The position numbers and the translations under genes are program-made. This document shows, piece by piece, positions 23,235 to 56,373 of a stretch of DNA of 64,000 bases. This stretch comes from a virus. Each line of letters begins with the position of its first letter. The stretch's first letter is position 1. The notes under the pieces are model-generated. The model saw nothing but the letters and a program-made list of their open reading frames with translations. It was not told where the DNA came from and did no database searches. The stretch lies in IMG/VR virus record IMGVR_UViG_3300042090_002148; one strand, 5' to 3'.

Positions 23235-23261
23235 CTTGTACCGCGTAGTTCCGCCAGCTTG
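23235..23261 (-). promoter_or_regulatory. Bipartite phage promoter motif (leftward)
   Basis: CAA-N15-CGGTACAAG, then GGAGG and ATG at 23217. Confidence 0.7.
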
Positions 23262-23263
23262 CA

Positions 23264-23290
23264 CAAGCACGGAAGAGAACACGGGACAAG
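23264..23290 (+). promoter_or_regulatory. Bipartite phage promoter motif (rightward)
   Basis: CAA-N15-CGGGACAAG, then GGAGG and ATG at 23308. Confidence 0.7.
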
Positions 23291-23307
23291 AGGAATGGAG
23301 GAAGAAC

Positions 23308-23673
23308 ATGGCCAAGACGCTGAAACTACGCCCGGAGGTTGCAGCCTTCGCACAGCTGATGGAGCGAGAGCTCCGGAAGAACGATCACAAAGGAGGGTGG
23401 AAGGATGACACCACTCACGAGCTCCTGGAGCGTCTCTTCGAGGAGACTGCGGAGCTCATCGGCTCCTTCCGGCCTTCGGGGAAGCGCGACCGGAAGAGGT
23501 GGAACGAGCGCCAACTGCTCCTCACCAAGCACCACGCCGAGATGGCCGCGGAGCAGATTGCTGATGTGACGATGAAGCCCACACGCACGTCCGTTTCCGA
23601 AGCGGTGGACGTAGCGAACTTCTGCCTCTTCGTAGTCGACGTGATGGGCAGCCTGCCCAAGGAGACGCCGTAG
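23308..23673 (+). CDS. All-alpha NTP pyrophosphohydrolase-like (MazG-like) protein
   Basis: AFAQLMERELRKNDHKGGW...RLFEETAEL...SEAVDVANF (ExxE / ExxD pattern). Confidence 0.6.
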   Translation: MAKTLKLRPEVAAFAQLMERELRKNDHKGGWKDDTTHELLERLFEETAELIGSFRPSGKRDRKRWNERQLLLTKHHAEMAAEQIADVTMKPTRTSVSEAVDVANFCLFVVDVMGSLPKETP

Positions 23674-24005
23674 TGCTCGACCCCGACCTTGCCGCACGGA
23701 AACTCTACGAGACAGTCAGCGCAGACTCGGACCATGTGACCTGGCTCAACTTGCGGCCCGGCGCAAAGGAGAACTACCGAAGGGCAGCAATGCTCATTGC
23801 GGCCAGCACACCGGCCCCTCTGGTCATCCACTGCACCTCGGTGGTGATCGCTCCCTACGCCGTGGACATCCACAAGCATATCTACGCCGACGTCACCAAT
23901 GAGAGTATCGAAGAGGCCGTCGAGGAGTTCCGGAAGTTCCTCAAGGAGGAGGCGGAATCCTGGAAGGCGCGCTACTCGCTGCTTCAGCCCAAGGAGAAGG
24001 CATGA
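23673..24005 (+). CDS. Hypothetical protein
   Basis: 110 aa, coupled to both neighbours. Confidence 0.6.
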   Translation: MLDPDLAARKLYETVSADSDHVTWLNLRPGAKENYRRAAMLIAASTPAPLVIHCTSVVIAPYAVDIHKHIYADVTNESIEEAVEEFRKFLKEEAESWKARYSLLQPKEKA

Positions 24006-24643
24006 CCGAGAACATCCGACACAGCTCGGCCTCGAACGAGCACTACACACCACCTGAGATCGTCGAGGCGGCGCGCTTCACCCTCGGGCACATCGACCTT
24101 GATCCCGCGAGCTGCGCGAAAGCCAACGCCGTGGTGCGCGCCTCGCGCTGGTACGGCCTTGTCGACAACGGGTACCAGCAGGACTTCGAGGGCAACGTCT
24201 TCCTCAACCCGCCCGGGGGCTGGTGCGACGTCTATGGTCGCCCGGTCATCAAGAAGTCCAAAGACAAGGCAGCCTGCACCCTCACGGGCGAGTGCGGGCT
24301 CGCTCCGGGGCACACGCACACGGGCACCGAGTCCTCGCAGAAGCTCTGGTGGCAACGGCTCGCGCAGGCGTGGGCTGAGGGGTACGTCCACAACGCAGTC
24401 TTCGTCTGCTTCTCCATCGAGCTCCTGCAGTCCACACAGGTTGACCCAAAAGGTCCTCTGCCACTCGAGTTCCCCATCTGCTACCCGGCACGCCGTGTGC
24501 CCTACATCGGCGAGGACGGGAAGCCACAGGGCAGTCCCCCACACGCGAGCTGCATCATCTGTCTGACGAACAGACCAGATGTGCTCAAGCGCTTCATCGA
24601 CCACTTCTCAACGTTCGGGCACATCGTGGTGCCGCGTGCCTGA
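24002..24643 (+). CDS. Phage DNA N6-adenine methyltransferase-like protein with NPPG motif
   Basis: EHYTPPEIV...IDLDPASC..AN...VFLNPPGG...ICYPARRVPY. Confidence 0.75.
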   Translation: MTENIRHSSASNEHYTPPEIVEAARFTLGHIDLDPASCAKANAVVRASRWYGLVDNGYQQDFEGNVFLNPPGGWCDVYGRPVIKKSKDKAACTLTGECGLAPGHTHTGTESSQKLWWQRLAQAWAEGYVHNAVFVCFSIELLQSTQVDPKGPLPLEFPICYPARRVPYIGEDGKPQGSPPHASCIICLTNRPDVLKRFIDHFSTFGHIVVPRA

Positions 24644-24833
24644 GGGACGGCCGCTCACCCGCGACGAAGTCCGAGAGTTCCTCAACCGCAAAGGCACACG
24701 GCGAAGAGAGGCACACTCGTTCACGAAGCGAATCCTGCACTGGCCCTACTGCGCGCACTGCGGGCTCGTGCTCCTGAAGAACGAAACCACACGTCGTGCA
24801 GCCAAGGCGCTGTGCGAATGGGAGGACGACTGA
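24636..24833 (+). CDS. Small zinc-finger protein
   Basis: 65 aa, HSF...WPYCAHCGLVLLKN...CEWEDD. Confidence 0.55.
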   Translation: MPEGRPLTRDEVREFLNRKGTRRREAHSFTKRILHWPYCAHCGLVLLKNETTRRAAKALCEWEDD

Positions 24834-24834
24834 G

Positions 24835-24872
24835 GGCTAAGAAGAAGGGGAGCTCCTCCCCTTCTTTTAGCT
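24835..24872. terminator. Bidirectional terminator with a TTAGC tail on both strands
   Basis: AAGAAGGGGAG-ctc-CTCCCCTTCTT stem between convergent genes; ggctaa on the left and TTAGCT on the right. Confidence 0.8.
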
Positions 24873-25083
24873 ATGGCTTCAGGTTCTTGAACGCCTCGTT
24901 GACGCGGTACTCGACCTTGTCATCTTGCTGTCGAGCCATCGAGTTCATGGCGTGCACGAGACGCGCCTGGTTCGTGCTCATCTTGGGCCTGCCGCGGAGT
25001 ACTTTCTCAACGCGCTCGGCCATCGTGAGGGTGTTGTCCTTCATCACAGCGGCTCGCCACGCTGCGTCGTCTGCCTCTGACAT
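24871..25083 (-). CDS. Hypothetical protein
   Basis: 70 aa, AAGGAG RBS. Confidence 0.55.
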   Translation of the reverse strand: MSEADDAAWRAAVMKDNTLTMAERVEKVLRGRPKMSTNQARLVHAMNSMARQQDDKVEYRVNEAFKNLKP

Positions 25084-25090
25084 GCTCCTT

Positions 25091-25606
25091 CTACTCCGAT
25101 AGGGTTACCTCGATCTGAGTCTCCAGCGTGTCTCCCGCGACCAGGGCGACGTCGCTATCGAGCTTCAGATCGAAGCAGATGTACTCGACAGGAACGGGCA
25201 CTGAGATGCTGCAAGTGAACGTGCCGTCCTCACTGAGCTTGGTGTCGCTGACCGTTGCGAATGTGAGAGGCGACGCCTTCATGTCCGGCGTGCCGATGGC
25301 CTTCATGATCTTGGCGATCTCCGCCTTCGCGATGCTGTCACGCATCGTCTGCTCGTCGCGGAGAACCATCTCGACACGGTCTGCCATCGGCACCCGCTCA
25401 TCCTCGAGCACCATCTTTCGCCACACGGCGACACGCCTGTCGATGTCCTGGAGCCACAGCCCTGTGACTTCTTCTTGTGTGCGGGCAGCATCTGCCGGCG
25501 GAAGAGGCTCAGGTGCGGACAACAGGGAGGACACCGAAGCGGCTGTGCATGAAGCGGGGTCGGCTTGGTCCACGGGAACCCCCGGGTGGGGCAGCCAGGG
25601 ATTCAT
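25091..25606 (-). CDS. Hypothetical protein
   Basis: 171 aa, GGAGGTGA RBS. Confidence 0.6.
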   Translation of the reverse strand: MNPWLPHPGVPVDQADPASCTAASVSSLLSAPEPLPPADAARTQEEVTGLWLQDIDRRVAVWRKMVLEDERVPMADRVEMVLRDEQTMRDSIAKAEIAKIMKAIGTPDMKASPLTFATVSDTKLSEDGTFTCSISVPVPVEYICFDLKLDSDVALVAGDTLETQIEVTLSE

Positions 25607-25874
25607 CTATCACCTCCTTGCCGGTGTGCGTGTCGATGACCTTCCAGAGGTACAGGGTGACGGGGACCTTCGTCTTCTTCGACGCGATCGTCGCCTCCTT
25701 GATCCGCTGGGTCTTGCAGGCGAGGGCGTCGGCGACGGTTCCTCGGCTGGCAACGGCTTTCCCGTTGTACTGGATGACGTAGCGCAGACTGCCAGTACGA
25801 CCAGCAGCGCGAACAGATGGGCGCGGTTTAGCCGCGGTCGTTCGGCGGCGTCGGGTGACACTCGGTAGGCTCAT
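25509..25874 (-). CDS. Hypothetical basic protein
   Basis: GC3-rich frame RYVIQYNGK...LYLWKVIDTHTGK; start uncertain. Confidence 0.45.
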   Translation of the reverse strand: MSLPSVTRRRRTTAAKPRPSVRAAGRTGSLRYVIQYNGKAVASRGTVADALACKTQRIKEATIASKKTKVPVTLYLWKVIDTHTGKEVIDESLAAPPGGSRGPSRPRFMHSRFGVLPVVRT

Positions 25875-26196
25875 GCTGCTGGGCAGTGTACTGGTCGCCA
25901 TCCTGCGTGACCAGGACCGTTCTGTCCGGGCCGATGCCCTTGTCGATGCCGAGCACGGCCTCGAACTCCCGGCCCTGGGCGTCGGTGACGATGAACGTGT
26001 CCTTGCTCCTGGGGGTCGTCAGAGCTCGCTCGAGGGCGCGGTCGATCTGAGCCTTGGTGCGGCGCTGCCCGAGCTCTTGCTGCCGGCGCTGACGTCGGTT
26101 CAGCCTCGCCGGTGGCGGGGGAGGGGGAGCTGCCGCGGGGACCTGGGGCGCCTTCTTGCCGAGGGCGACCAGGCTGTTGCGGATGAAGTTTCGCAT
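25828..26196 (-). CDS. Hypothetical protein
   Basis: MRNFIRNSL..., GAGGAG RBS. Confidence 0.5.
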   Translation of the reverse strand: MRNFIRNSLVALGKKAPQVPAAAPPPPPPARLNRRQRRQQELGQRRTKAQIDRALERALTTPRSKDTFIVTDAQGREFEAVLGIDKGIGPDRTVLVTQDGDQYTAQQHEPTECHPTPPNDRG

Positions 26197-26197
26197 G

Positions 26198-27241
26198 TCA
26201 CTCCTCGGGGGGAAGATGCGGGATGTCCTCGCTGCGCGAGATGAAGTAGCGGCGGATGGCGTCACGGAGACGCGGCTTGGCCGTGCTGAGCTGGAGCACG
26301 CCCTGGAAGTCAGGGAAGACGTCGGTCGTGGGGTTGTACTGGTACTCGACCAGGATCTTGTCGCGGCTCGAGTAGCCACGGCGCTTCTTGGGCCCGTGGT
26401 AGTGGTGGATCGCGTGACCGTCGACGTAGCCGATGTTCTTCGTGAGAAGAGCGGCACGCTGCTGCCACGCATGGATGTACGCGCGGTACTCGGGGGCGTA
26501 CCCGTTGTCGTGCATGTCGGGGGCCTGCTCGCCGATGAGGCCGAAGGCCATGAACCAGTCGCCGTGCCCGAGGATGCAGCGGTCGAGGAGACCACCCACC
26601 GTCTCGAAGGCTGAACGTCGGAAGGCCCAAGCACCGCCGGTCGCGCCAACGTGGCGTCCACCGTAGCCGTGACCACCACTTCCCACGGCCCAGCCGCCCT
26701 GGCCGAAGCCCTCGGGCATGCCGTTCTGGATGTAGTTGAACGCAAAGCCGTTGTTCACGCCGAGCGGGCGGTGTCCGTACCCGTAGTGCTCGCCGCTCAG
26801 GTCCATGTACGACGAGAACATCTGCACGAACTCGTAGTGCTGGAGCTGATGTATGGTCTCGAGCGCGATGTCGTGTCGCGTGAAGTGGAAGTCCGCGTCG
26901 ATGACGGCGCCGTACTGCCAGTCCTTCGGGAAGTGCTGCACGGCCAGGTTGAGGAGGTTCTCCTTGTGGAAGAGCTCCGCACGCGTGCGCAAGGCGATGT
27001 CCGTCGGATAGAGCTCCGGGTCCGCGATGTCGAACGGACGATCCCCGTACGCGATCTCGATGAGATGGAGCTCGACGTTCGCGAGGTTCTGCATGTGACG
27101 CCGGAAGTCGTTCGCGAGCTCGCGGCGGTTACGCCAGCGGAACGGGTTGCTGTAGCAGGCCGCGACATGGAGGACTTGCCCTTCCGACCACTCACTCGTC
27201 GGGATGTGAACGTCGGGGTGCTGCAGATGCTTGTGCTCCAT
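26198..27241 (-). CDS. GT-A fold glycosyltransferase-like protein of a family familiar from giant eukaryotic viruses
   Basis: SNPFRWRNRREL, IEIAYGD, HKENLLNL, IDAD (DxD), GAWAFRRSAFETVGGL, ILGHGD, HHYHGPKKRRGY. Confidence 0.7.
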   Translation of the reverse strand: MEHKHLQHPDVHIPTSEWSEGQVLHVAACYSNPFRWRNRRELANDFRRHMQNLANVELHLIEIAYGDRPFDIADPELYPTDIALRTRAELFHKENLLNLAVQHFPKDWQYGAVIDADFHFTRHDIALETIHQLQHYEFVQMFSSYMDLSGEHYGYGHRPLGVNNGFAFNYIQNGMPEGFGQGGWAVGSGGHGYGGRHVGATGGAWAFRRSAFETVGGLLDRCILGHGDWFMAFGLIGEQAPDMHDNGYAPEYRAYIHAWQQRAALLTKNIGYVDGHAIHHYHGPKKRRGYSSRDKILVEYQYNPTTDVFPDFQGVLQLSTAKPRLRDAIRRYFISRSEDIPHLPPEE

Positions 27242-27248
27242 GAATCTC

Positions 27249-27434
27249 CTACTGGTAGGGACGTAACCGTTGTACCCACCGCGCACTGTGGGCTTCGTGA
27301 CAGCTGCGTGAGCAGAACACGACACGGCGCAGCACGGGCCTTCCGCACTCGTTGCACACAAAGTCCTCGTTCGGGTCCACATCGCGGACGAAGAGGGGGC
27401 GGATGAGGTCGAAGAAGAGCTTCTTGAGCAGCAT
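27249..27434 (-). CDS. Small zinc-finger protein
   Basis: 61 aa, CNECGRPV...FCSRSC. Confidence 0.5.
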   Translation of the reverse strand: MLLKKLFFDLIRPLFVRDVDPNEDFVCNECGRPVLRRVVFCSRSCHEAHSARWVQRLRPYQ

Positions 27435-27449
27435 GCGGCTGCTTCTAGC

Positions 27450-27465
27450 GTCTACCTGAGTTTTC
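27450..27465 (-). promoter_or_regulatory. Second-class promoter-like motif GAAAACTCAGGTAGAC
   Basis: 15/16 identical to 59895..59910; both lie just upstream of an ATG. Confidence 0.4.
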
Positions 27466-27529
27466 TCTTCTTCGCCAGAAGAACTTGACCAACCGTCGAG
27501 AGACTGTGAAGAGTCCGTGTCGTACACCA

Positions 27530-27787
27530 TCATCTGTTCGCCGCCTTCTTCTTGGACCAAAACGCCCGCTTACTCCGCACGTCCAGCTGGAGCAAGCGCG
27601 TCGTACTGACGGGCGCCGGTTCGCTGGCTAAGGGCGGATCCTCAGAGTCTCGGAGCAGGCGCTGCTCAGCGCACTGCTCCTCGAAGGTCGCGGGCTTCAC
27701 CAGATCGATGAAGCCCCTCGTCCGGTAGCGATACAGCAAGGCAGCGAACCGCGTCGCTACCGGACGAACTGCGGACTGGTCGCTCAT
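27530..27787 (-). CDS. Hypothetical protein
   Basis: 85 aa. Confidence 0.45.
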   Translation of the reverse strand: MSDQSAVRPVATRFAALLYRYRTRGFIDLVKPATFEEQCAEQRLLRDSEDPPLASEPAPVSTTRLLQLDVRSKRAFWSKKKAANR

Positions 27788-27788
27788 C

Positions 27789-28076
27789 TCAGTTGTCGTT
27801 CGCCGGTCTTGGCGCGTCCATCATACGCACCTGTTCCTCCGTGAACTCAAGGGACTTCCGCAGGATGATGAGAACGTTCTTCGGGTGGGTGTTCCCGAGG
27901 GTCAGGATGACGTTCTCCCCGTTGTAGAGGACGCGTGCGCAGAGGACGCCGGTGGGCAGATGTTCGTTGAGGGTCTTGTTGATCCTCGCGGCGATCTCCT
28001 CCATCTCTTTCTGCGTCTTCACGTCTTCTTCCGTCGCTGCCACCACGCTCGCAGCTTGTTCTTCAGCCAGGCCCAA
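27789..28076 (-). CDS. Hypothetical protein
   Basis: 95 aa, GC3-rich. Confidence 0.5.
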   Translation of the reverse strand: MGLAEEQAASVVAATEEDVKTQKEMEEIAARINKTLNEHLPTGVLCARVLYNGENVILTLGNTHPKNVLIILRKSLEFTEEQVRMMDAPRPANDN

Positions 28077-28121
28077 GCCAGTCCCATGCTCGAGAGCGCG
28101 GTCACAGCAGCCGCCGTCTCG

Positions 28122-28532
28122 TCAGCGCACCAGTGCACGGGACGCTCCCTTGAAGACCTCGGGTCGCGGGCCGTTCACACCGTTGGCCTTCTTCTTTGTG
28201 TCCTCCCTCTTTTTGCGAGCAAGGAGCTCCACCTGCGCCTTCGCGTCGAGCTCGACCCAGGTCTTCATCTCGGTCATCAAGCCGACGACAATAGCGATCT
28301 CTCCCGACACGTCTGCAGACGGCCCGATGTTGTTCGCGTAGTCGACCCGCAGACGGTTGAACGGACGCAGACGCTCATCTGCGGTGCCGTCCGTCGGCTT
28401 GTTCCCCTGCTGCCAACTGTACCCTGGGGGCGACGCGTCATTCCGCGAGACGCGCAGGGTGATGCCTGTCTCCGGATCGGTGAAGTCCTGGACGACCTCC
28501 CACGTGTACGGCTTACGATCCTTCTTTCCCAT
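28122..28532 (-). CDS. Hypothetical protein
   Basis: 136 aa, GC3-rich. Confidence 0.55.
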   Translation of the reverse strand: MGKKDRKPYTWEVVQDFTDPETGITLRVSRNDASPPGYSWQQGNKPTDGTADERLRPFNRLRVDYANNIGPSADVSGEIAIVVGLMTEMKTWVELDAKAQVELLARKKREDTKKKANGVNGPRPEVFKGASRALVR

Positions 28533-28848
28533 GTGAGCGCCCTTTCTTGGTTGTCTTCTTCCGCGAACGCTTGCTGCCGTTCACGAACTCCCAGATGCTC
28601 TTGTGACTGCGGTTCAGCGCGCGTGCGATGGCCGGGTAGCTCCAGCCTTCCTCGCGCAGCTTCTTGCAGACGCGCTTGCGGGCCTCGACGACATGCGTGA
28701 GGCGACCCTTCGCGAGAATCAGCGCCCACGACACCGGCTGCTGTTCCGCAACGGTCAGCTTCTGCGCGTCCTTCTGCAACCACTTCAAGTCGTACTCGTT
28801 TACCTCTTGGAGGAACTTCTCTGCGGCGTCCTTGATGTTGTTGTCCAT
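28513..28848 (-). CDS. HTH protein resembling DnaA domain IV
   Basis: GRLTHVVEARKRVCKKLREEGWSYPAIARALNRSHKSIWEFV. Confidence 0.55.
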   Translation of the reverse strand: MDNNIKDAAEKFLQEVNEYDLKWLQKDAQKLTVAEQQPVSWALILAKGRLTHVVEARKRVCKKLREEGWSYPAIARALNRSHKSIWEFVNGSKRSRKKTTKKGRSHGKEGS

Positions 28849-28855
28849 GCTTCCC

Positions 28856-29197
28856 TCACGAGAGGTAGAAGATGTCGACACGCCGGCCCCGGTAGTCCCA
28901 GTACTCGACGTGCTTGTTGTCCAGCGAGCCCTTCCTGCGCCAGATCTTGAGGATCTGCTCGCGGTTCAGCCCGAGGCGTAGCCCACAGCTTTTCAACACG
29001 CTGTGGACAGCCTCGACGTCCTGCTTCTCCGTGGTGAGCGGGAAGACGATGATGTCCAGGTCCTTGTTGCTGGTCCCGTCCCAGAGGACGCTGCCTGTCA
29101 TCCCGGTGACGTAGCCAACATCCAGCAGCGGTCTGCGGATCATGCGAACGAACTCGAGCGCGAGGGAGCTCGTCCACCCGGGGTACCTCAGTCCCAC
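28856..29197 (-). CDS. Minimal pol-beta-superfamily nucleotidyltransferase-like protein
   Basis: TGMTGSVL...NKDLDIIVF...RVDIF (hGS, DxD, third D). Confidence 0.6.
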   Translation of the reverse strand: MGLRYPGWTSSLALEFVRMIRRPLLDVGYVTGMTGSVLWDGTSNKDLDIIVFPLTTEKQDVEAVHSVLKSCGLRLGLNREQILKIWRRKGSLDNKHVEYWDYRGRRVDIFYLS

Positions 29198-29391
29198 GCA
29201 CGCCTCCTGTCGTCGCGATGCTTGCCTTCATGCCCCTGGAGTTGCTGACAGATCGAGGTGTAGAGCGTGTTCGTACAGAGCGAATAGTGCCTCGCGCACT
29301 TCGCGCAATAGCCGCTACGGCCCGTGTGCCCGTACTCGATGCGGAGCTCTTCCTTGTGCTCGGGGCACTCCGGGAAGAGGAACGCGCTCAT
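29188..29391 (-). CDS. Small Cys/His-rich protein
   Basis: 67 aa, CPEH...CAKC...C...C. Confidence 0.5.
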   Translation of the reverse strand: MSAFLFPECPEHKEELRIEYGHTGRSGYCAKCARHYSLCTNTLYTSICQQLQGHEGKHRDDRRRAWD

Positions 29392-29660
29392 GGCCCTGCG
29401 GGCGGAGCCGGGGGTGCTGGTGGGGTGAGCGCCGCGATGGCGGCCTGGATCTGGTTCGCCAGCGACGGAGGGAGCTGCATGGGCGCGGTGCCAAGGGTGG
29501 CGTTCGCACGGCACGTCCCATTCGAGATGGACGCCGTGAAGCGCCACTGCCCGGTGCTGCCGACCCAGAACGAGTCGGAGGTGTTCTGCCAGTTAGTCAC
29601 CTGCCCGATGGCGGTGGCGGCTTCGGCTAGGGTGTCTTGAACGAAGTTCGGCTGGGTCAT
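29388..29660 (-). CDS. Hypothetical protein
   Basis: 90 aa, first gene after the promoter at 29677. Confidence 0.6.
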   Translation of the reverse strand: MTQPNFVQDTLAEAATAIGQVTNWQNTSDSFWVGSTGQWRFTASISNGTCRANATLGTAPMQLPPSLANQIQAAIAALTPPAPPAPPAGP

Positions 29661-29676
29661 AGTGGTCTCCGAGATC

Positions 29677-29747
29677 CTTGTGCCGTAAAGCCACAAGTTC
29701 TTCACAGCGTACCGTGGCTAAGAAACGGGGCCCAGAGGCCCCGTCTC
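29677..29747 (-). promoter_or_regulatory. Terminator-TTAGC-promoter junction
   Basis: GACGGGGCC-tctg-GGCCCCGTT hairpin, TTAGCC, then GAA-N15-CGGCACAAG. Confidence 0.65.
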
Positions 29748-29749
29748 AA

Positions 29750-31766: not shown

Positions 31767-32298
31767 CCTTCTTCTCCTTCACGCGCGTCGGAGCAAGGAT
31801 GCCATCAAGCTGGTCGAAGCGCTCCTTGTAGAATTTCGTCCAGCGCCTGAGCGGAGCTCCCCACTCAGTAGGCGGCGTGAGCTCCTTCTCGAGCAGTTTC
31901 CGGCAAGTCGCAAGCCACGCGTCCACCTGCTCGCGAAAAGACACCTGGACATAGTCGAGGGCGTTGTAGCCGATCCACACCTGCTCGACTCGCGCCTTGT
32001 CGACCTGTGTGATGGAGCTCAGGTCGAGCGCCTGAAGCGCCACCATCCCTCGGCCCACCAACTCTTCATCGGTGAACCTCGAGGTCTTCCTCGAGGCCTC
32101 GGCATGCGCGAAGGAACGAATAGCCTCGGCGTGCGCCTTGTGCCTGCAGGTCGCGATGACCTCTGCCCACTTCTCCGTCGGCTTCGTGCGGTAGCAGACG
32201 TGGAACTGGCCCATGTGCTCCACCACGAGCACGCGAGATGTTCCAGGCTCGACCTGGAAGCCACCTCCGATGAGGGTTAGCGTATTGGCGCCGCCCAC
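31756..32298 (-). CDS. Hypothetical protein
   Basis: 180 aa, coupled to neighbours. Confidence 0.55.
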   Translation of the reverse strand: MGGANTLTLIGGGFQVEPGTSRVLVVEHMGQFHVCYRTKPTEKWAEVIATCRHKAHAEAIRSFAHAEASRKTSRFTDEELVGRGMVALQALDLSSITQVDKARVEQVWIGYNALDYVQVSFREQVDAWLATCRKLLEKELTPPTEWGAPLRRWTKFYKERFDQLDGILAPTRVKEKKDDV

Positions 32299-32675: not shown

Positions 32676-32694
32676 AGAAAGAACCTCCACTGTT

Positions 32695-32755
32695 CTTGTA
32701 CCCGTTCCAGCCGAGGACTTGAGGGCTAAAAAACAGCGCCCGATGGGGCGCTGTT
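32695..32755 (-). promoter_or_regulatory. Terminator-TTAGC-promoter junction
   Basis: AACAGCGCCC-catc-GGGCGCTGTT hairpin, TTTTAGCC, then CAA-N15-GGGTACAAG. Confidence 0.75.
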
Positions 32756-32872
32756 GTCCTTCACGACAGTCCGTTGGTCACCCCACTGACCACGCCCTGG
32801 TTATCCTCGGGAGCGGGAGGCTGCCGTTGCCAGCAGTACAGGTGCTTGCGTCTCCAGTGCATTCTACGGGCT

Positions 32873-33115
32873 TCATGCTCGCCTCCGTGCGACCTTGCGG
32901 ACCTGCTTGGGTGGGTGGGCTGCGCGGTGCTCGGCCAGGATGATGGACTTCACCACCATGTCCGCGACCATGCTCAGCGGCAGCGTGTAGATGCGGCGCT
33001 TCTTGTAGACGCGCACGCCGAATGTCTTCGCCTCACGGTCGATGAGGACCGTGCCGTCTTGTACTCCGCCGGCGCCGTCGAGCGCACCGGTTACCTCGAA
33101 TCGTGACGTGCTCAT
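32873..33115 (-). CDS. Hypothetical protein
   Basis: 80 aa, GGAGG RBS after the promoter at 33132. Confidence 0.6.
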   Translation of the reverse strand: MSTSRFEVTGALDGAGGVQDGTVLIDREAKTFGVRVYKKRRIYTLPLSMVADMVVKSIILAEHRAAHPPKQVRKVARRRA

Positions 33116-33131
33116 GAACACCTCCACGATC

Positions 33132-33188
33132 CTTGTACCGGTTCTGTTGCGCAGATGGACTAAGAGAAAGGGGCCGAAGCCCCTCCCT
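33132..33188 (-). promoter_or_regulatory. Terminator-TTAG-promoter junction
   Basis: AGGGGC-ttcg-GCCCCT hairpin, TTAGTC, then CAT-N14-CGGTACAAG. Confidence 0.65.
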
Positions 33189-33192
33189 CACA

Positions 33193-35508: not shown

Positions 35509-35615
35509 GCGCGGTACTTCCCCAAGGCGGTCTCATCGACCACCAGGATGTAGGTGAGCGCGCCCGCAGCAGCTCCTGCGAGGCACGCGATGGTGCGGGC
35601 TTGGTCTCGGGTCAT
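35487..35615 (-). CDS. Small membrane peptide
   Basis: 42 aa with TIACLAGAAAGALTYILVV; ATGA overlap. Confidence 0.4.
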   Translation of the reverse strand: MTRDQARTIACLAGAAAGALTYILVVDETALGKYRAWRRDVW

Positions 35616-35884
35616 CCTGTCTCCTTTGCCGCTGCCTCTTGGGCCTGCTTTACCAGGGCGCGGCGTTCGTCCTCGAGCACCTTCGGGTCGACGTCGCAGT
35701 ACTGCATGTAGAGCCACTCGATGTCGCGCTCGTAGATTCGGGCGTACTCGCCGTCCTCCAACCGCTGGCAAAGCATGACTCCCTTCTCCTCGAGGGCGTC
35801 GAGAAAAGCTGTGATGATGGCTTGATCTCCACGAGCTGCGGCCCAGCGCTCGCACATCGGTGTGGACAGCTCGGACTTGGCCAT
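35612..35884 (-). CDS. Hypothetical phage protein
   Basis: 90 aa, GGAGG RBS after the promoter at 35904. Confidence 0.65.
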   Translation of the reverse strand: MAKSELSTPMCERWAAARGDQAIITAFLDALEEKGVMLCQRLEDGEYARIYERDIEWLYMQYCDVDPKVLEDERRALVKQAQEAAAKETG

Positions 35885-35903
35885 GTGTAAAACCTCCATG
35901 ACC

Positions 35904-35963
35904 CTTGTCCCGGCTTTCGCACGAAACTGACGGCTAAGAAGAAGCCCACGTGGGGCTTCTCTC
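35904..35963 (-). promoter_or_regulatory. Terminator-TTAGC-promoter junction
   Basis: AGAAGCCC...GGGCTTCT hairpin, TTAGCC, then CAG-N14-CGGGACAAG. Confidence 0.7.
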
Positions 35964-35965
35964 TG

Positions 35966-37307: not shown

Positions 37308-37510
37308 CTTGTCTTCTCCTTGGTGACTCTTGCGAATCCGACTCTGTTCCCGTTGATGTCGCGCAGGTTCGTCTCCTCGAAGACGCGGATGCCCGGGTCC
37401 GCGCAAACGATGCCGAGGACCTGCTCTTTGAAGATGCGGTGCACCTCCGTCCGCTTCCTACCTGCGGTGAAGGCGTCGTTGTCCATCTCGATCTCGATGA
37501 TGAGCTTCAT
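37304..37510 (-). CDS. Small conserved phage protein
   Basis: KLIIEIEMDNDAF...EVHRI...LRDINGNRVG. Confidence 0.65.
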   Translation of the reverse strand: MKLIIEIEMDNDAFTAGRKRTEVHRIFKEQVLGIVCADPGIRVFEETNLRDINGNRVGFARVTKEKTR

Positions 37511-37935
37511 CCGTGCCTCCTTGAGGGACGTCCCTTTGTTCCGAGCAGGTCCTTGCACGACGCCTCAAGCTGGTCGAGAAGCACGCGCATGTACTCGCTC
37601 TCTTCACCCACGCGCAGCAGAGCTGCAGCCACGGCCTTCTCGGGCGTTGTGCCCTCCACGACGAAGCGCTCCGCATAGACCCTAAACAGCCTCTTGCCGT
37701 GCTGATGCAGGTCAAGCAAACCGGTACTGTCCATGACGGACCAGTACCAGGTGCCGTTCTCCCAGGTACGCACCTTCCAGCCCTTCCCGAGGCGCTTCGC
37801 GAGCGCCCAGCCCTCCTTGACGGCCTGCTGATAGGCCGCCCACGTGCAACCGAACCCACACCCTAGCGAACAGTACTTCGTCCCTCGACGCCGCGGCTTC
37901 CGGCGGTCCAACTCCTTCTTCTTCTTGGCAGCCAT
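37507..37935 (-). CDS. Hypothetical protein
   Basis: 142 aa, GGAGG RBS after the promoter at 37953. Confidence 0.6.
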   Translation of the reverse strand: MAAKKKKELDRRKPRRRGTKYCSLGCGFGCTWAAYQQAVKEGWALAKRLGKGWKVRTWENGTWYWSVMDSTGLLDLHQHGKRLFRVYAERFVVEGTTPEKAVAAALLRVGEESEYMRVLLDQLEASCKDLLGTKGRPSRRHG

Positions 37936-37952
37936 GTTGTTCCTCCGCGGTC

Positions 37953-38013
37953 CTTGTCCCGCGTTTCAGAGGAGATTGGCTAAGCAAAAGAACAAGGCCC
38001 GCCGAAGCGGGCC
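37953..38013 (-). promoter_or_regulatory. Terminator-TTAGC-promoter junction
   Basis: GGCCCGC-ttcg-GCGGGCC hairpin, TTAGCC, then CAA-N14-CGGGACAAG. Confidence 0.75.
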
Positions 38014-38018
38014 ACGCT

Positions 38019-38659: not shown

Positions 38660-38687
38660 GCACTCACCTCGTAGATGATGTCGCCGC

Positions 38688-39095: not shown

Positions 39096-39523
39096 CAGCC
39101 TGTCTTCCTTCCAAGCTGCCTCATCGAGTGGGCGTCCTGTTGGTAGTGATGTACCTGATCTCGCGGATGGTTGCGTTGAGTTCGCTGTCGTACTCCTTCT
39201 TCAAGGCATGCTCCACAGCAGGAACAACCTCGAAGGCAAAGCGCAGCTCAAGCCGCGCGTCTTCCATGCTGTTTGCGTAGCAGCGTCGCCAGTTCAGTGC
39301 TCTATGCAGTAGCTGACGCACCTGCTCGGCAGAGAGTGGGCCCAGCCCGTCGCCTCTCCGCACAACCCCGCCGATCTCTTTGTAGGTCAGGCCGCGGCTG
39401 AACAACCGCAGGGCCAGATCGAGGTCATCCTTGGTGCGCTCGTTGTGGTGGCGGTATTCATCACTCCTCGCCATCAACGCCCTCATCTCTGGGCTGCGCA
39501 TCAGCCCGTCTTCCTTCCAAGCT
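39093..39523. repeat. 25-bp direct repeat (24/25 identical) flanking one gene
   Basis: catcagcc(t/c)gtcttccttccaagct at 39093-39117 and 39499-39523; each copy contains the RBS and ATG of a gene. Confidence 0.8.
39121..39501 (-). CDS. Stand-alone sigma-70 region 4-like HTH protein
   Basis: RLFSRGLTYKEIG...LSAEQVRQLLHRAL. Confidence 0.55.
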   Translation of the reverse strand: MRSPEMRALMARSDEYRHHNERTKDDLDLALRLFSRGLTYKEIGGVVRRGDGLGPLSAEQVRQLLHRALNWRRCYANSMEDARLELRFAFEVVPAVEHALKKEYDSELNATIREIRYITTNRTPTR

Positions 39524-39746
39524 TCGCCACCGGGAAGCGCACGTTCATGGTCTTCACGACCTTCTCGAACTGTTCGGGCGTGAGCTCGAAGAGCTGCATC
39601 TGGCCCACTGGTGCGGTGAGCCAGGACTCGGTGTTGAAGTGGCCGACCTTCGAGTAGTCGTCCGTGTACATCGCCTGAACGATCGCGCACATAGGGCGAA
39701 GCTCGGTCATGTCGAAAACAAGACGCACCGGGGTAGAGACGAGCAT
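39501..39746 (-). CDS. Hypothetical protein
   Basis: 81 aa, GGAGG RBS after the promoter at 39764. Confidence 0.6.
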   Translation of the reverse strand: MLVSTPVRLVFDMTELRPMCAIVQAMYTDDYSKVGHFNTESWLTAPVGQMQLFELTPEQFEKVVKTMNVRFPVAKLGRKTG

Positions 39747-39763
39747 GTGAAACCTCCACAACC

Positions 39764-39821
39764 CTTATCTCTGAAGAGCAGGCGAAGTTGAGGGGCTAAG
39801 AAGAAGCCCGAAGGCTTCTCT
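39764..39821 (-). promoter_or_regulatory. Terminator-TTAGC-promoter junction
   Basis: AGAAGCC-ttcg-GGCTTCT hairpin, TTAGCC, then CAA-N15-AGAGATAAG. Confidence 0.7.
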
Positions 39822-39823: not shown

Positions 39824-40231
39824 TTATCGCTTTCTGATAACAGCCTGCGCCGGCACTCCGGTAGGGAAGGTGCGCATGCGCGTCTCCGCTGGGCGCCATT
39901 CCTCGGAAACAACCACCACAGGAGCGGCCTGCCCACGATCTCGGAAGAGAAGAGGGCTGCGCTCACGCCGCATCTTTTGGTTGCAATCGGCGTGTAACAG
40001 AATGGGCCCTTCTACACCCTCCACGCGCGTGAGCTTGCCGTCTAGGCCGCAATACGTACATATCAATGGCCTTTCCTTCCACCCGACTTTCTTGAGGTAC
40101 GCTGCTGCTCCCCGGAGACCGCCGTGCTCATGAAACAACTTGATGACGGACTTACGGCTGAGTGTTTTGTCCAAATCGAAGCGCCACGTCAATTCGTCAA
40201 TCAACTGTTTTTCGGCCCTCGGATAACTCAT
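39824..40231 (-). CDS. Hypothetical protein with CxxC...H..C motif
   Basis: 135 aa, lower GC3, GGAGG RBS after the promoter at 40250. Confidence 0.55.
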   Translation of the reverse strand: MSYPRAEKQLIDELTWRFDLDKTLSRKSVIKLFHEHGGLRGAAAYLKKVGWKERPLICTYCGLDGKLTRVEGVEGPILLHADCNQKMRRERSPLLFRDRGQAAPVVVVSEEWRPAETRMRTFPTGVPAQAVIRKR

Positions 40232-40249
40232 GTGAACACCTCCGCTATC

Positions 40250-40276
40250 CTTGTCTCTGGATGGCGAAGGAAGTTG
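40250..40276 (-). promoter_or_regulatory. Bipartite phage promoter motif
   Basis: CAA-N15-AGAGACAAG upstream of GGAGG and ATG at 40231. Confidence 0.65.
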
Positions 40277-43800: not shown

Positions 43801-44219
43801 TTGGCGGCGAACTGCTGGTAGGCGGGGGCGTTCGAGACCTTGCCGATGGCACTTGTCCTATTGGCTGCAGCCGCCGCGAGGTTCTGAAGAGCGGCCTGCG
43901 CGTTGAACAACGGGGACACGTCCGAGACCGGCGTGACCTTCATCCCCGTGGCCGCGATGGCAGCCAGAAGTTGCTGGATGATGACGGCTTCGGCGGTCAC
44001 CTGATCGCGGATGCGCTGCACCCCCAACCAGAGCACGTAGAAGGGTGCGTTGGGGTACAGGACGAACAACCCAGCCGCTGTCTGCTGGAACTGGTTGAAC
44101 GTGAGGTCGGATCGTCTAACCCCGAGCGTATCAATTGGGGTGGTGATGCTCGAAAGGACGAGCTGCTGGACGACGGCGTTGATCTCGTCCGAGGTGTATC
44201 CGGTCGTAGGCTGGGTCAT
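40815..44219 (-). CDS. Large virion-like (tail/baseplate-associated) protein
   Basis: 1134 aa, T/S/G/V-rich and Lys-poor like the 1-14 kb structural genes; internal repeat INGQSDVTGHTLAVGDVV / INGDPMATNHALTMGDVI. Confidence 0.65.
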   Translation of the reverse strand: MTQPTTGYTSDEINAVVQQLVLSSITTPIDTLGVRRSDLTFNQFQQTAAGLFVLYPNAPFYVLWLGVQRIRDQVTAEAVIIQQLLAAIAATGMKVTPVSDVSPLFNAQAALQNLAAAAANRTSAIGKVSNAPAYQQFAANVSSFLSGPGQNVKSNGQIVQTPQQAKAAIPGLMKQLQAAHTALVASITLIVNGVTNYNSISLPAIVSESVLSSAASLIGSSATLLNSLSPTDRLTEVRQVVLNLIASKTAVDTFGTLNQPSDYYTLAGVGMPYSDAQHLATPAVAVGDQTGAMAIITGLFDLLLLVLEGETTVPITLPPSVIAELDGQGSDLNFFVGDGSVTGIPQNNTFKMKINTTAYVCPLTLSPYTTGPFAVTARTADQVAADINAVIPTGQVQAQGYYSPLKYSGKLITDGAGTTWTVPSYGSPPAYIANLFTLNVSPGDTIECAGSFYIIATVDPGGAFVTTTTAGPISSTVAVQIGPVNRKLKIICVNPNEQITAGTSITVYADDVASTGCLQMLGLTSGMTMSCSPTTPDVVASYINANTSLVEAGTYISSLYVGSAQGSTTSSTTLVITEAEASGSQMFVGPGTDLTYTVTGLVTGGMISTGDTMAVRSGPTPASYYVISEINGQSDVTGHTLAVGDVVLGVLGAGSPVGAGSATNVSVQFGPTLTLSKYDCITVQGPNINQGLYLVASQGGTGFTPLDVSLQSALSSPAAGSLPSTFTISHGKRSLTLASLNTTTASKVFVGGNAAPLFFSEAATLHGIVQGTSSFLGTTLTWTVTVIVDAGNISVGYTLDTQNTSSGSSACYIVQSINGDPMATNHALTMGDVIVASGTIGGPLDNVAAFFPSVTQLGTTPWFQLPAIPNGLNSGDIMEVYATQYNSPTVSYDIEQVIAGINVIEISPDIVDGTTWTFTPQPVPFARLRVGIVNDYTLVQGLMQSWLNGTTQQPLYFTNMNAVINPLLTSDNPTVAQVGAATAAVNELWSFLQGAQATAMNLPPSQAIDTTLADYDVEPVTVIDTLITSYTNQGSDRAVDILLSGDFVTFFGLTMDGASYSGAMQEATRAVAMQDLPVSKVNRPEQQNGVIQSTSVSADPEYPANLANETLGGAQPEVPGTYGQPTSYLNNQGS

Positions 44220-44737
44220 GACGCTCTCTTCTTACGGCGATCGTAGGGGACGTAGTCTTCGCTGGCACGGCGACGGTTGCTACGCACGTGGTAGACGTAT
44301 GCACGAGGACAGCCGTGACGTCGGGCACACTCCGCTCCGCTGTCCGTAGAGGTGCGGATGTCCTCGATGACGGCGTCGCTGTACCTGGCCGCCTGGTGTT
44401 CTTCCCCGCGTAGCGGCTCTGTCGACGTCAAAGCTCGCCTGGCTTTGGCCTGCTTGCCGATGTGTGCCCGGCACTTCGCGCAGCTCTTGTAGCCAGGCGT
44501 GGGCTCGCACCGACCGCAGATGTAGCAGAGGCCGCTAGTCTTCTTCTTAGCGGCCCAGCGGTCCCTGCTTGGCTTGCACGCCTTCTTGAACTTCTCGTAG
44601 CAGTTCTTGCAGCGGTCGCTCGAGTAGGTCTGCGTGGCCGGGCAGTCCTTGCAGTGGCCCATCGCCTTCTTCTTGGCGCGTCGTTCTCGTTGCTTGCGTA
44701 ACCGGTGTGCATGAGCAGCGGGAGTCATGGCCCTCAT
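44216..44737 (-). CDS. Cys-rich zinc-binding protein with a homing-endonuclease-type C-terminal HTH
   Basis: Four CxxC pairs, then RGEEHQAARYSDAVIEDIR...CARRHGCPRAYVYHVR. Confidence 0.55.
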   Translation of the reverse strand: MRAMTPAAHAHRLRKQRERRAKKKAMGHCKDCPATQTYSSDRCKNCYEKFKKACKPSRDRWAAKKKTSGLCYICGRCEPTPGYKSCAKCRAHIGKQAKARRALTSTEPLRGEEHQAARYSDAVIEDIRTSTDSGAECARRHGCPRAYVYHVRSNRRRASEDYVPYDRRKKRAS

Positions 44738-44746
44738 CCTACCGAG

Positions 44747-44780
44747 GGCTAAGAGAAAGCGCCACGTTGGCGCCTCCTCC
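44747..44780 (-). terminator. Intrinsic terminator with TTAGC tail
   Basis: GGCGCCA-acg-TGGCGCT hairpin followed by ttctcTTAGCC. Confidence 0.65.
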
Positions 44781-44783: not shown

Positions 44784-45005
44784 CTAACGTGGCGGCTCTC
44801 TTGTCATCTCGAGTCCACGCAGCACGCCGTTCAACTGAGAGTCCTTGAGCTCCAGCTGCTGTTCGAGAAGCTTGCTCTTCCTGCACTCCTTCGCCAGCAA
44901 GAAGATGAGCCCTCTGCGTTCCATCCCGCTCACGGGCTCCATCTCGTCTTCCTCCGCAGGAAGTGGCGCGAACATCGTCTCGAGCTCGTCGAATCCGGTA
45001 CCCAT
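44784..45005 (-). CDS. Hypothetical protein
   Basis: 73 aa, GGAGG RBS after the promoter at 45025. Confidence 0.55.
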   Translation of the reverse strand: MGTGFDELETMFAPLPAEEDEMEPVSGMERRGLIFLLAKECRKSKLLEQQLELKDSQLNGVLRGLEMTREPPR

Positions 45006-45024
45006 GGTTGCTACCTCCACGAGT

Positions 45025-45051
45025 CTTATCCCGGATCGGCGTGTTGTTTTG
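45025..45051 (-). promoter_or_regulatory. Bipartite phage promoter motif
   Basis: CAA-N15-CGGGATAAG. Confidence 0.7.
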
Positions 45052-47572: not shown

Positions 47573-47599
47573 GTTGTATCTGAACGCACATTGTTTTTG
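47573..47599 (-). promoter_or_regulatory. Bipartite phage promoter motif (variant)
   Basis: CAA-N15-AGATACAAC upstream of the ParB-like gene. Confidence 0.55.
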
Positions 47600-50150: not shown

Positions 50151-50462
50151 GGCTAACAACAGCGGGGGCTGTGCCCCCAGTTGTGTTTTCAGGTTGTGTT
50201 TACCCGATGCTACTTTGCGGTCAGTCCGTGTCGCAGAGAGAGTCTGTCGACCTCCTCGTTTCTCGTGCGCGATGCGGCCTCACACAGCACACTTGTTGAA
50301 GTATTGGGTACCGCTAGCGAACTGCTGCCTTCAGCTAGTCTCCCGAATGTCATCACTCTCGTTTAGTCGCAAAGGGTGCACTGCCTCGTACTGCTATTGG
50401 ACGTCTTGCCTCCTGTTCTGGAGAACAACGGAACACTCCAGACAGACATAGGTGTCTGCCTC
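50151..50462 (-). ncRNA. Candidate structured small RNA
   Basis: No credible ORF between the promoter (50469) and the terminator-TTAGCC (50151-50185); several stem-loops. Confidence 0.35.
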
Positions 50463-50468
50463 ATGATC

Positions 50469-50540
50469 CTTGTCCCGCTTCGCGGTCGACTCTTGCGAAG
50501 GCTAAAAAGAACGAGGAGCAGGCCGAAGCCAGCTCCTCGT
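50469..50540 (-). promoter_or_regulatory. Terminator-TTAGC-promoter junction
   Basis: ACGAGGAGC-tGGC-ttcg-GCC-tGCTCCTCGT hairpin, TTTTTAGCC, then CAA-N15-CGGGACAAG. Confidence 0.75.
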
Positions 50541-54731: not shown

Positions 54732-54755
54732 AGCTCTCCTTTCGTGCGCTGTACG

Positions 54756-55376
54756 TCAGGTCTTCCGGCCAGGGAACTTAGTCTCGAGCTCGCTCTTCAT
54801 CGCCGAGATGATGGCTGGCTTGCTCTTGCGGATCTCTTCCGCGATCTCGTGGTCCTTCTTCTCCGCCTCGAGCTCGGCCTTCAAGAGCTTCTGGAAGCGC
54901 GGGAAGATGACGTTGCAGAACTGAGTGCACTGCACCTCGGGGACTTGGATGAAGTGGCGACCTGCCTCCTCGAGGTGCGTGAAACCCATCCAGTCATCGA
55001 AGCCCGCCTCTTCATCCAGGTCGAAGGACAACCCGCTCTCGGGGTCCTCCCCTGCGAGGAGCTTCTCCTCGAACGCCTTGTCCTCGGGGTCCTCTACCTT
55101 GTCGATGGCCTGGCGGATGGAGGCGCGCGTCGCCTCGGGGTCGTAGACGCGCTTGTCAGGGCGCTCCATCATCAGCTTGTCGAACAGGTAGTCTGGACGG
55201 ATGCCGAGGAGGAACGCGCGGAACTCCTTGCCAGGATGGGACCACACGTAGACGTAGTTTCCGTGGTCGCTGGCTGTCGCGAAGAAGCCAAGGTCGGTGT
55301 CAATAACGATAACGCACCAACCCTCACCCTTGACGCTGTCGACCTTGTACTTTCGCAGCATGCTCACCTCTTGCAC
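54756..55376 (-). CDS. Hypothetical phage protein
   Basis: 206 aa, SDHGNYVYVW...YLFDKL. Confidence 0.6.
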   Translation of the reverse strand: MQEVSMLRKYKVDSVKGEGWCVIVIDTDLGFFATASDHGNYVYVWSHPGKEFRAFLLGIRPDYLFDKLMMERPDKRVYDPEATRASIRQAIDKVEDPEDKAFEEKLLAGEDPESGLSFDLDEEAGFDDWMGFTHLEEAGRHFIQVPEVQCTQFCNVIFPRFQKLLKAELEAEKKDHEIAEEIRKSKPAIISAMKSELETKFPGRKT

Positions 55377-55627
55377 TTGATGCCCGAGTCGTCTGCGCCG
55401 GCGTCCACCCCGTAGTCGGCCAGCACCTTGCTCACGGCGCAGTACGCGGCGCGAACCTCTTGGCCCTCGACGCTCTCAGCTCCCGTGTGCTGGTAGGCCA
55501 GGCCGGTGTCGACGCGTGCGTTCATCAGGTTCTTCGCCGCCGCCGGCGAGAGCACAGCCCCACCCCCGCAGCCTGCGAGGAAGCCGAGGATGGCGGTGTG
55601 CGTGATGGTCCACTTGAACTTCTTCAT
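55364..55627 (-). CDS. Lipoprotein
   Basis: MKKFKWTITHTAILGFLAG|C lipobox; AAGGAG RBS. Confidence 0.55.
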   Translation of the reverse strand: MKKFKWTITHTAILGFLAGCGGGAVLSPAAAKNLMNARVDTGLAYQHTGAESVEGQEVRAAYCAVSKVLADYGVDAGADDSGIKCKR

Positions 55628-55656
55628 GGGAGCTCCTTCGACGTCTCGAGAGAACG

Positions 55657-55884
55657 TCAGCATGTGCGGTCCGGTACGGCTGCAGCCATCTCGTCGCTGG
55701 AGCACTGCTCTCGCCAGCACAGCTGGCACCAGGCAATGTCCACCGCGGTGCTCGTGTTGTGCGGCATCGAGAGCGGAACGGTGACGCGCACACGGGCGTT
55801 GCCTGCGAGCAGCTTCACGCCGCATCGGCAGCAGACGTGGTCGACCTGCAGCGTGACGAGCTTGGGCTCGGGTGCTTCTCTCAT
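55657..55884 (-). CDS. Small zinc-finger protein
   Basis: CCRCG...WCQLC. Confidence 0.45.
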   Translation of the reverse strand: MREAPEPKLVTLQVDHVCCRCGVKLLAGNARVRVTVPLSMPHNTSTAVDIAWCQLCWREQCSSDEMAAAVPDRTC

Positions 55885-56312
55885 CCATTCCCTCCTTGGT
55901 ACCACCGCGCGTTGCGCAGCCTGCTGGTGTAGTCGGCGATCCACGCCATGGCCTCCTGGACAGTTGGGAAGCGCGCGATGGTGTCGTGCACGCCGGCGAG
56001 CATCTGGATGGCGTAGTCGTGCACGTACTGCGTGGGCGGGAAGTTCATCGGCGCGTACGTCTGCAGCGCGTCGACGAGCCGCTGGTACGACCCAGGGCTC
56101 GGACTTCCGTTCCTCTGGGACTCCGAGAGCACCAGCCAGGCCGCGTTGGCAACGCGCTCGGTGTCGCGCCAGCTGCGCATGAACTCGATGAACTTGTCAG
56201 CGAGCTGCTCCTGCGTGAGTGTCTTCGTGAAGTACTCCTTCACCTGCCCTTCGTCCGCGGCTTCATAGCCACGAATCTCGTCGATGGGCATCCGCCGTTG
56301 TTTTGCTGCCAT
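55881..56312 (-). CDS. Hypothetical protein
   Basis: 143 aa, GGAGG RBS downstream of the promoter at 56347. Confidence 0.6.
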   Translation of the reverse strand: MAAKQRRMPIDEIRGYEAADEGQVKEYFTKTLTQEQLADKFIEFMRSWRDTERVANAAWLVLSESQRNGSPSPGSYQRLVDALQTYAPMNFPPTQYVHDYAIQMLAGVHDTIARFPTVQEAMAWIADYTSRLRNARWYQGGNG

Positions 56313-56346
56313 GATCCTCCAGGGAGCGCGTGAAGCGTCCAAGATC

Positions 56347-56373
56347 CTTGTGCCGCAAGTCAGGCAGGAGTTG
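56347..56373 (-). promoter_or_regulatory. Bipartite phage promoter motif
   Basis: CAA-N15-CGGCACAAG. Confidence 0.7.

Follow-up and report, generated by a model that had tools for sequence, protein, structure and literature searches.

The viral stretch IMGVR_UViG_3300042090_002148 from IMG/VR carries 13 copies of a two-part sequence in front of genes, an upstream CAA and a downstream box, [C/A]G[G/A]NA[C/T]AAG, separated by 14 or 15 nt. What are these sites, and what reads them? We use "the window" for the whole stretch of 64,000 nt, which has a GC content of 62.6% and carries nearly all of its genes on the minus strand; this is the sequence that was scanned, and genome-wide statements rest on relatives. 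The 13 sites very probably act as promoters, with the phage's own sigma factor as their likely reader. The full signal is longer than a first-pass annotation of the same DNA had described, and reads CAA-N14/15-CGGNAYAAG-GAT-N2-Y-GGAGG. What is new is the fusion of the box across 6 nt to the GGAGG of the Shine-Dalgarno (SD) sequence, a pyrimidine/purine start signature found over six genomes, and a lower bound on the distance to the SD.

A two-part signal and its conservation

Each of the 13 copies lies at the coordinates and on the strand that the first-pass annotation had assigned, and all 13 are intergenic and co-oriented with the next gene. The tally of upstream elements is also confirmed: nine sites have CAA-N15, and the others have GAA-N15 (29677), CAA-N14 (37953), CAT-N14 (33132) or CAG-N14 (35904). 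The proposed downstream box fits exactly at 11 of the 13, the differences being that the site at 32695 begins with G and the site at 47573 finishes with AAC. A scan of the entire window yields no composite site beyond the 13, and none within 1-23 kb or 57-64 kb, in agreement with the reported absence of copies from the structural blocks. The annotation had also asked whether the motif is as common within coding sequences; the look-alikes found there consist of the box only, with neither CAA nor GGAGG.

When the sites are aligned on the G of AAG (position 0), CAA occupies positions -26 to -24, A or T stands at -11, and CGGNAYAAG covers -8 to 0. Positions +1 to +11 are conserved too, with GAT at +1 to +3, a pyrimidine at +6 (T in nine sites, C in four) and GGAGG at +7 to +11, where the G at +7 is present in 13/13. 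The GGAGG had been noticed a short distance 3' of most copies; it is indeed there, and at 10-11 of the 13 exactly 6 nt separate it from the box. Between this ribosome-binding site and the start codon lie 5-8 nt.

The seed CAA-N15-NGNNAYAAG occurs eight times in the window, against 0.2 expected from a first-order Markov model, and all eight matches are intergenic. For AYAAG-N6-GGAG there are 10 matches on the minus strand (0.4 expected) and one on the plus strand (0.3 expected). An unbiased search for k-mers enriched 5' of called genes recovers CAAGGA, GGTACA and TGGAGG. A position weight matrix trained on the 13 sites separated them perfectly but was circular, and was replaced by the fixed seed, the Markov expectations and the de novo k-mers.

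The surroundings of the sites also suit promoters. Seven of the 13 begin 10-20 nt behind a strong hairpin (-16 to -24 kcal/mol) that has a T-rich run and then TTAGCC or TTAGTC on its 3' side, and two others, P1 and P2 below, have their CAA boxes 2 nt apart and together fill the 90-nt gap between divergent start codons. A scan for the sigma-70-type consensus in 23000-42900 finds 0 sites, against 2.6 in shuffled sequences. Taken together, these placements leave no room for another promoter. The hairpins were taken from RNAfold applied to the flanks, because the built-in terminator scan misses most terminators of the TTCTTCTTAGCC type, in which the T run is interrupted. Bipartite, strand-specific, intergenic, lying behind terminators or in a divergent gap, and conserved in relatives, the sites can be called promoters with considerable confidence.

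Whole relatives compared with the window are G001 (about 80% nucleotide identity, collinear), G002 (48% identity in the sigma protein described below) and G003 (38%). These relatives span 38-94% sigma identity, and the two-part signal is enriched 15-20 fold in them; G001, G002 and G003 have 17, 22 and 20 matches to the seed, respectively, against about one expected, mostly between genes. Two genomes with sigma proteins 30-33% identical, G006 and G005, have 16 and 6 matches, compared with 0 for a reversed-pattern control. The unbiased k-mers enriched 5' of genes in relatives are ATAAGA, GGATAAG and GCATAAG, with G002 and G003 giving the first two. Between the window and G001 the spacers mutate and the boxes and spacing are retained, most clearly at 40250 and 50469.

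The signal extends to cultured phages. In Salmonella phage Arash, NGGTATAAG occurs 31 times against 3.2 expected (30 intergenic, 30 on the minus strand), and the TATAAG version of the box, TGGTATAAG, is present in about 30 copies. The box of Vibrio phage D69 is TG[TGC]TATAAG, with a tCAA-like element upstream. The form GNTATAAG, from another genome, belongs to the same -10-like class, of which the window holds an ACAAG-rich subset. Box-bearing phages differ in host and GC content (Salmonella, 53%; Vibrio, 45%; further phages, 62%). Enrichment of AYAAG-N6-GGAG is absent from the more distant relatives G003, G005 and G006, which makes the fixed N6 coupling a peculiarity of the window clade. A megablast search of 20 kb of the window against a phage collection gave no match.

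Predicted transcription start and the phage sigma factor

To locate the start, 48 non-redundant sites of the window, G002 and G003 were pooled. A pyrimidine stands 6 nt past the box in 47 of the 48, and the next base, 7 nt past the box, is always a purine (42 G and six A); this step persists although most G003 sites have their SD further off. The corresponding counts are 29/30 and 30/30 in Arash, and 23/23 and 23/23 in D69. Distances from box to SD in the four high-GC genomes are 6 nt at 23 sites, 7-9 nt at 13, 10-19 nt at none and 20-30 nt at 13, and the minimum is 6 nt in Arash and D69 as well. In the window clade the SD starts are concentrated at 6-9 nt. Only two values among about 100 sites in the six genomes fall below this floor (0 in G002 and 5 in G001); these look like products of the SD-matching rule, the G001 case being explained by a GAGG aligned one base early. 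In the relatives, the box-to-SD distance ranges from 6 to more than 50 nt and the distance to the pyrimidine/purine step is constant. A fixed step with the SD never upstream of it is the signature expected of a transcript start.

We number the sites by setting the invariant A of AYAAG at -11, after the sigma-28 register (PMC12784957). The box then covers -15 to -7, CAA falls at -33 to -31 (corresponding to the last three letters of TAAA), and +1 falls on the invariant purine. In the window, +1 is reasonably likely to coincide with the first G of GGAGG or to lie 1 nt from it. If this prediction is true, the window clade has natural mRNAs that begin with the SD sequence.

The candidate reader is a 279-aa sigma-70-family protein encoded at 61768..62607 (minus strand), in a block without the promoter signal and among proteins with weak, sub-threshold matches to immunoglobulin-like domains. 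It is a genuine member of the family, of group-3 size, with regions 2, 3 and 4 in order. With the family profile, residues 74-253 align in the PDB to SigA regions 2.3-4.2 (E 7e-18); the profile matches FliA at 6e-7. The Pfam Sigma70_r3 score is 23.1 bits, slightly under the cutoff of 25.3 bits. The AF2 model (pLDDT 83) is all-helical, and every listed Foldseek match is a sigma factor, from several groups. Family members match SigBFG (16/20), FliA_WhiG (15/20) and RpoD_Cterm (14/20), with best E values of about 1e-8 to 1e-10; one displayed subgroup-model score is 17 bits, far under the curated 234-bit cutoff of that model. The protein had been described as the phage's own FliA-like sigma. It does belong to the sigma-70 family, but profiles and fold show no preference for FliA over SigA, SigB and SigF.

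The open reading frame has 87 metagenome relatives, many on contigs of about 180 kb. It is 35% identical to the annotated sigma of Arash and also matches a protein of Vibrio phages D69, D148 and D181, the range including Arash being 35-38%. Every sigma-bearing relative examined carries the box, and the phage sigma is the one transcription factor common to all these genomes. Region 4.2 is well conserved in the family, as is CAA among the sites, and positions in region 2.4 vary, as does box base -12 (T in Arash and D69, G in G003, C in G002 and G005). On this evidence, the phage sigma is the likely reader of the promoters. The core enzyme probably comes from the phage as well. Purified Arash virions contain abundant beta, beta' and sigma proteins (PMC10585845), and G001 encodes a single 2169-aa protein in which Rpb2 domains are followed by Rpb1 domains, a fused polymerase. 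In this phage group, a single-chain RNA polymerase of bacterial type goes together with a sigma factor of the phage's own.

The sigma gene itself has a box in some relatives. It is headed by CAA-N15-CGGGATAAG at position 147677 (minus strand) of G003, and in Arash the box GGGTATAAG at 11587-11595 (plus strand) stands shortly before gp9 and the sigma gene gp10. Autoregulation of sigma is possible in such relatives; it is not seen in the window. A sigma homologue, P0068 (49% identity), is annotated in a 13.6-Mb record of the myxococcote Pendulispora rubella (Myxococcota), and G002 is listed in IMG/VR as a provirus, both of which are possible clues to the host or a carried state of this phage group.

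The favoured reading, which we consider likely as a whole, is that the sites are phage-specific sigma-dependent promoters whose mRNAs start at the ribosome site. Each of the 12 solid sites (all but the one at 47573) would consist of a -35 element, CAA, at -33 to -31; a non-conserved spacer of 14-15 nt; a composite -10 element, CGGNAYAAG, at -15 to -7 with invariant A-11, A-9, A-8 and G-7; and a discriminator, GATnnY, after which transcription would start (+1) on the G that opens GGAGG. Each mRNA would thus begin with its own SD sequence and have a leader of only 10-13 nt. The reader would most likely be 61768..62607, probably together with the phage single-chain beta-beta' RNA polymerase, and both would be delivered in the virion and turn on the non-virion genes at about 22.9-56.3 kb. 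The motif, its statistics, placement and conservation and the start-site signature are observed directly; which sigma and core enzyme read the sites, the exact +1 and an early or middle timing are inferred.

Several points weigh against this reading. The -35 element is just 3 nt long and weaker in Arash, and the spacer is N14, not N15, at some window sites. A strong terminator with TTAGCC at 44752 precedes genes without a promoter box, which suggests that read-through occurs and that a terminator does not prove the need for a new start. The box in front of the G003 sigma gene complicates a strict scheme in which early genes are driven by a sigma made late and carried in the virion. The +1 is deduced from base patterns, not from mapped 5' ends of transcripts. 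An SD at the extreme 5' end of an mRNA is unusual, and we know of no test of its efficiency. Finally, judged from sequence, what links sigma and promoter is co-occurrence only.

This last point also suits an explanation in which the sites are promoters for a host sigma (FliA/WhiG-type or another alternative factor) and the phage sigma serves different genes. Both the spacing of 15 nt and the 3' end of the box, which reads GATAA in relatives, coincide with the sigma-28 consensus (PMC7286023, PMC12784957), but neither the GC of the sigma-28 extended -10 nor the T of TAAA is retained. A host factor is also hard to reconcile with G-7, which is invariant across phages of very different hosts and GC contents, as fits a phage-carried factor, and with the presence of the phage sigma in all box genomes. 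We regard a host sigma as unlikely.

A still smaller chance goes to a box that acts in RNA and serves, in connection with the ribosome-binding site, as a signal for translation or processing in the manner of cluster K start-associated sequences or a RegA-type operator. The fixed 6 nt from box to GGAGG in the window is what a signal working with the SD would give, but in relatives it is the pyrimidine/purine distance that is fixed, and the SD that moves. An upstream CAA with a non-conserved spacer of 14-15 nt is typical of sigma recognition, not of RNA recognition; with seven sites just past terminators and two in the divergent gap, the box would often not be transcribed; and Rfam gives no match in the window. 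Dispersed 9-nt boxes before many operons would also be expected from a global repressor or activator, but it is just as improbable that a DNA-binding regulator of the phage uses the box as its operator, with unrecognised weak promoters overlapping it, as the box is asymmetric rather than palindromic, has its conserved letters at the places of a -10 element (A-11, A-9, A-8), keeps a fixed distance to the pyrimidine/purine step, and has flanks without any other conserved promoter-like element.

Phage-specific sigma-dependent promoters give a precise and testable model (-35 CAA, -10 with G-7, and a defined +1) for a little-studied phage group, and the model can be tested in Arash, which is cultured and has about 30 TATAAG copies. 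The sigma, promoter and ribosome-binding site would, if the predicted start holds, form a compact orthogonal module. The signal also sets apart a region of accessory and replication genes, which carries the promoters (about 22.9-56.3 kb), from blocks that lack it, and this aids annotation of many metagenomic relatives. A tentative extension, on which we would not insist, is that a group of phages of about 180 kb uses a virion sigma-70-family factor and a single-chain beta-beta' polymerase to read (T)CAA-N15-YGGNAYAAG, and that the window clade may have compacted this to a promoter-plus-RBS (ribosome-binding site) cassette of about 45 bp, with mRNAs that have nothing 5' of the SD.

Individual sites and neighbouring signals

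The sites are on the minus strand unless stated otherwise. P1 (CAA-N15-CGGTACAAG-N6-GGAGG, 23224..23261) heads 22882..23217 and is conserved in G001. Back to back with it is P2 (CAA-N15-CGGGACAAG-N6-GGAGG, 23264..23301, plus strand), also compared with G001, which heads the sole plus-strand operon (ATG at 23308).

Seven sites have a terminator on their 5' side. P3 (GAA-N15-CGGCACAAG-N6-GGAGA, 29666..29703) heads 29388..29660 and has a terminator hairpin and TTAGCC directly 5'. P4 (CAA-N15-GGGTACAAG-N6-GGAGG, 32684..32721) has in G001 the box GGAGACAAG, which still satisfies the consensus. P5 (CAT-N14-CGGTACAAG-N6-GGAGG, 33121..33157) heads 32873..33115, P6 (CAG-N14-CGGGACAAG-N6-GGAGG, 35893..35929) heads 35612..35884, P7 (CAA-N14-CGGGACAAG-N6-GGAGG, 37942..37978) heads 37507..37935, and P8 (CAA-N15-AGAGATAAG-N6-GGAGG, 39753..39790) heads 39501..39746. 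The seventh is P12 (CAA-N15-CGGGACAAG-N6-GAGGC, 50458..50495); in G001 about half of its spacer bases differ, and the boxes and 20 nt downstream are retained. After P12 come about 310 nt in which no convincing open reading frame is seen, and then a terminator; the segment 50151-50495 (minus strand) is a candidate small RNA.

Of the remaining sites, P9 (CAA-N15-AGAGACAAG-N6-GGAGG, 40239..40276) heads 39824..40231, and in G001 several of its spacer bases are changed with boxes and spacing retained. P10 (CAA-N15-CGGGATAAG-N6-GGAGG, 45014..45051) heads 44784..45005. P13 (CAA-N15-CGGCACAAG-N6-GGACG, 56336..56373) has its real SD and ATG (56312) further downstream. The site at 47573..47599 (CAA-N15-CAGATACAAC) is the weakest and a doubtful member, with AAC at the end of its box, an SD at a distance of 25 nt and no G001 counterpart in the local alignment. 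The other 12 are solid. Searches of the first genes behind ten promoters against Pfam and PHROGs gave only two matches, both to PHROG families of unknown function; a Dda-like helicase is encoded further down the promoter-headed units.

The terminators share one form, a GC-rich hairpin, an interrupted T run and a TTAGCC tail, as exemplified by the one that precedes P3 (29716..29756, minus strand). On the minus strand of the window, TTAGCC, TTAGCT or TTAGTC starts at 14140, 24840, 29721, 32729, 33163, 35937, 37983, 39799, 44752, 46494, 50156 and 50505, and a tail of this type is found on the plus strand at 24867. Apart from that of P3, the promoter-preceding TTAGCC/TTAGTC tails are those at 32729, 33163, 35937, 37983, 39799 and 50505. 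TTAGCC was considered as a part of the promoter and rejected, because it stands anywhere between 30 and 44 nt from the box and is also found after terminators with no promoter behind them. Upstream regions of genes in relatives are enriched in the tail too, in the form TAGCC in G001 and G003 and CTAGCC in G002. This conservation goes well beyond the needs of a plain intrinsic terminator, and the tail might tell the phage polymerase to stop or mark a place of processing. The terminator at 44662-44760 (minus strand; -24.6 kcal/mol) is followed by 44216..44662 and an open reading frame of 1134 aa, both without a box, which would require either read-through or an unrecognised start.

Other promoter-like sequences occur outside the regulon. 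The sole good sigma-70-like upstream site, TTGACG-N18-GACAAT, is at 59639-59668 (minus strand), 9 nt before the gene 59256..59630, and is conserved in G001 at about 59034-59063 (minus strand). In blocks without the main promoter, TAnAnT-like boxes (GTAGACT, GTACATC, GTAGATT) stand 2-24 nt before start codons. They are located at 59888-59894, 19154-19160 and 3497-3503 in the window and, 5' of the fused RNA polymerase gene, at 145661-145667 in G001 (all minus strand). These may be a second promoter class, for which the search pattern is too loose and noisy to score, and those 5-7 nt from the ATG could produce leaderless or near-leaderless mRNAs. A separate feature of Arash is a set of five near-identical repeats of at least 85 nt around the palindromic TTATATAAG, spaced 34-40 kb round the genome (about 26700-26790, 66450-66540, 100200-100290, 138550-138640 and 173320-173410).

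Comparison with known systems

A literature search found no paper on promoters of this phage group or on Arash transcription, and the sites are best described relative to better-known systems. The closest in layout is sigma-28, with the consensus TAAAGTTT-N11-GCCGATAA (PMC7286023, PMC12784957). In the solved sigma-28 complex with P. aeruginosa fliC, the elements are (-36)TCTAAAG(-30) and (-15)GCCGATAA(-8), and A-11 is flipped out (PMC12784957). The window sites have the same bipartite layout (N15 or N14), with AA at -32/-31, a 15-nt gap and a composite -10 at -15 to -8/-7 that includes A-11, A-9 and A-8, and the boxes of relatives contain GATAA. With respect to this core, A-11, A-9 and A-8 are invariant in the window, -10 is C in 11/13 (T in relatives), and -12 is not conserved. 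The differences are that the window has CAA, with no conserved T before it, instead of TAAA, and CGG instead of GCC at -15 to -13; that G-7 is a feature of the phage box; and that the targets are phage accessory and replication genes and the probable reader a divergent phage sigma. Of the first-pass reading as a diverged sigma-28-type promoter, the register and geometry hold, but the extended -10 GC and TAAA are lost, and an extended -10 promoter is an equally fair description.

The extended -10 consensus of housekeeping sigma-70 is TGnTATAAT, and the Arash/D69 box, TG[GT]TATAAG, matches it at all letters but the last. That letter is G instead of the critical T at -7; in addition, the window clade has CGG and ACAAG, and CAA takes the place of TTGACA. 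Within the window, -7 is G in 12/13 sites (C at 47573) and no TTGACA is present, unlike in the housekeeping sigma-70 promoter (TTGACA-N17-TATAAT).

Phage-encoded sigma factors with their own promoters include SPO1 gp28 and gp33/34, T4 gp55 and phiEco32 gp36. The window would share with these systems the arrangement in which the phage supplies the specificity factor and genes of one temporal class are marked by a private consensus. In cluster K mycobacteriophages, the start-associated sequences are fixed in position to the SD and start codon, not to the transcript start, whereas in the relatives of the window the SD distance varies and the pyrimidine/purine distance is constant. Virion RNA polymerases are known from N4 and phiKZ-type phages (PMC7598289). 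The multisubunit polymerases of jumbo phages are described as sigma-independent, whereas here a sigma-70-family protein accompanies a single-chain beta-beta'. Other phage-sigma promoters have a different consensus, and the fusion of the promoter to the SD is peculiar to the window clade.

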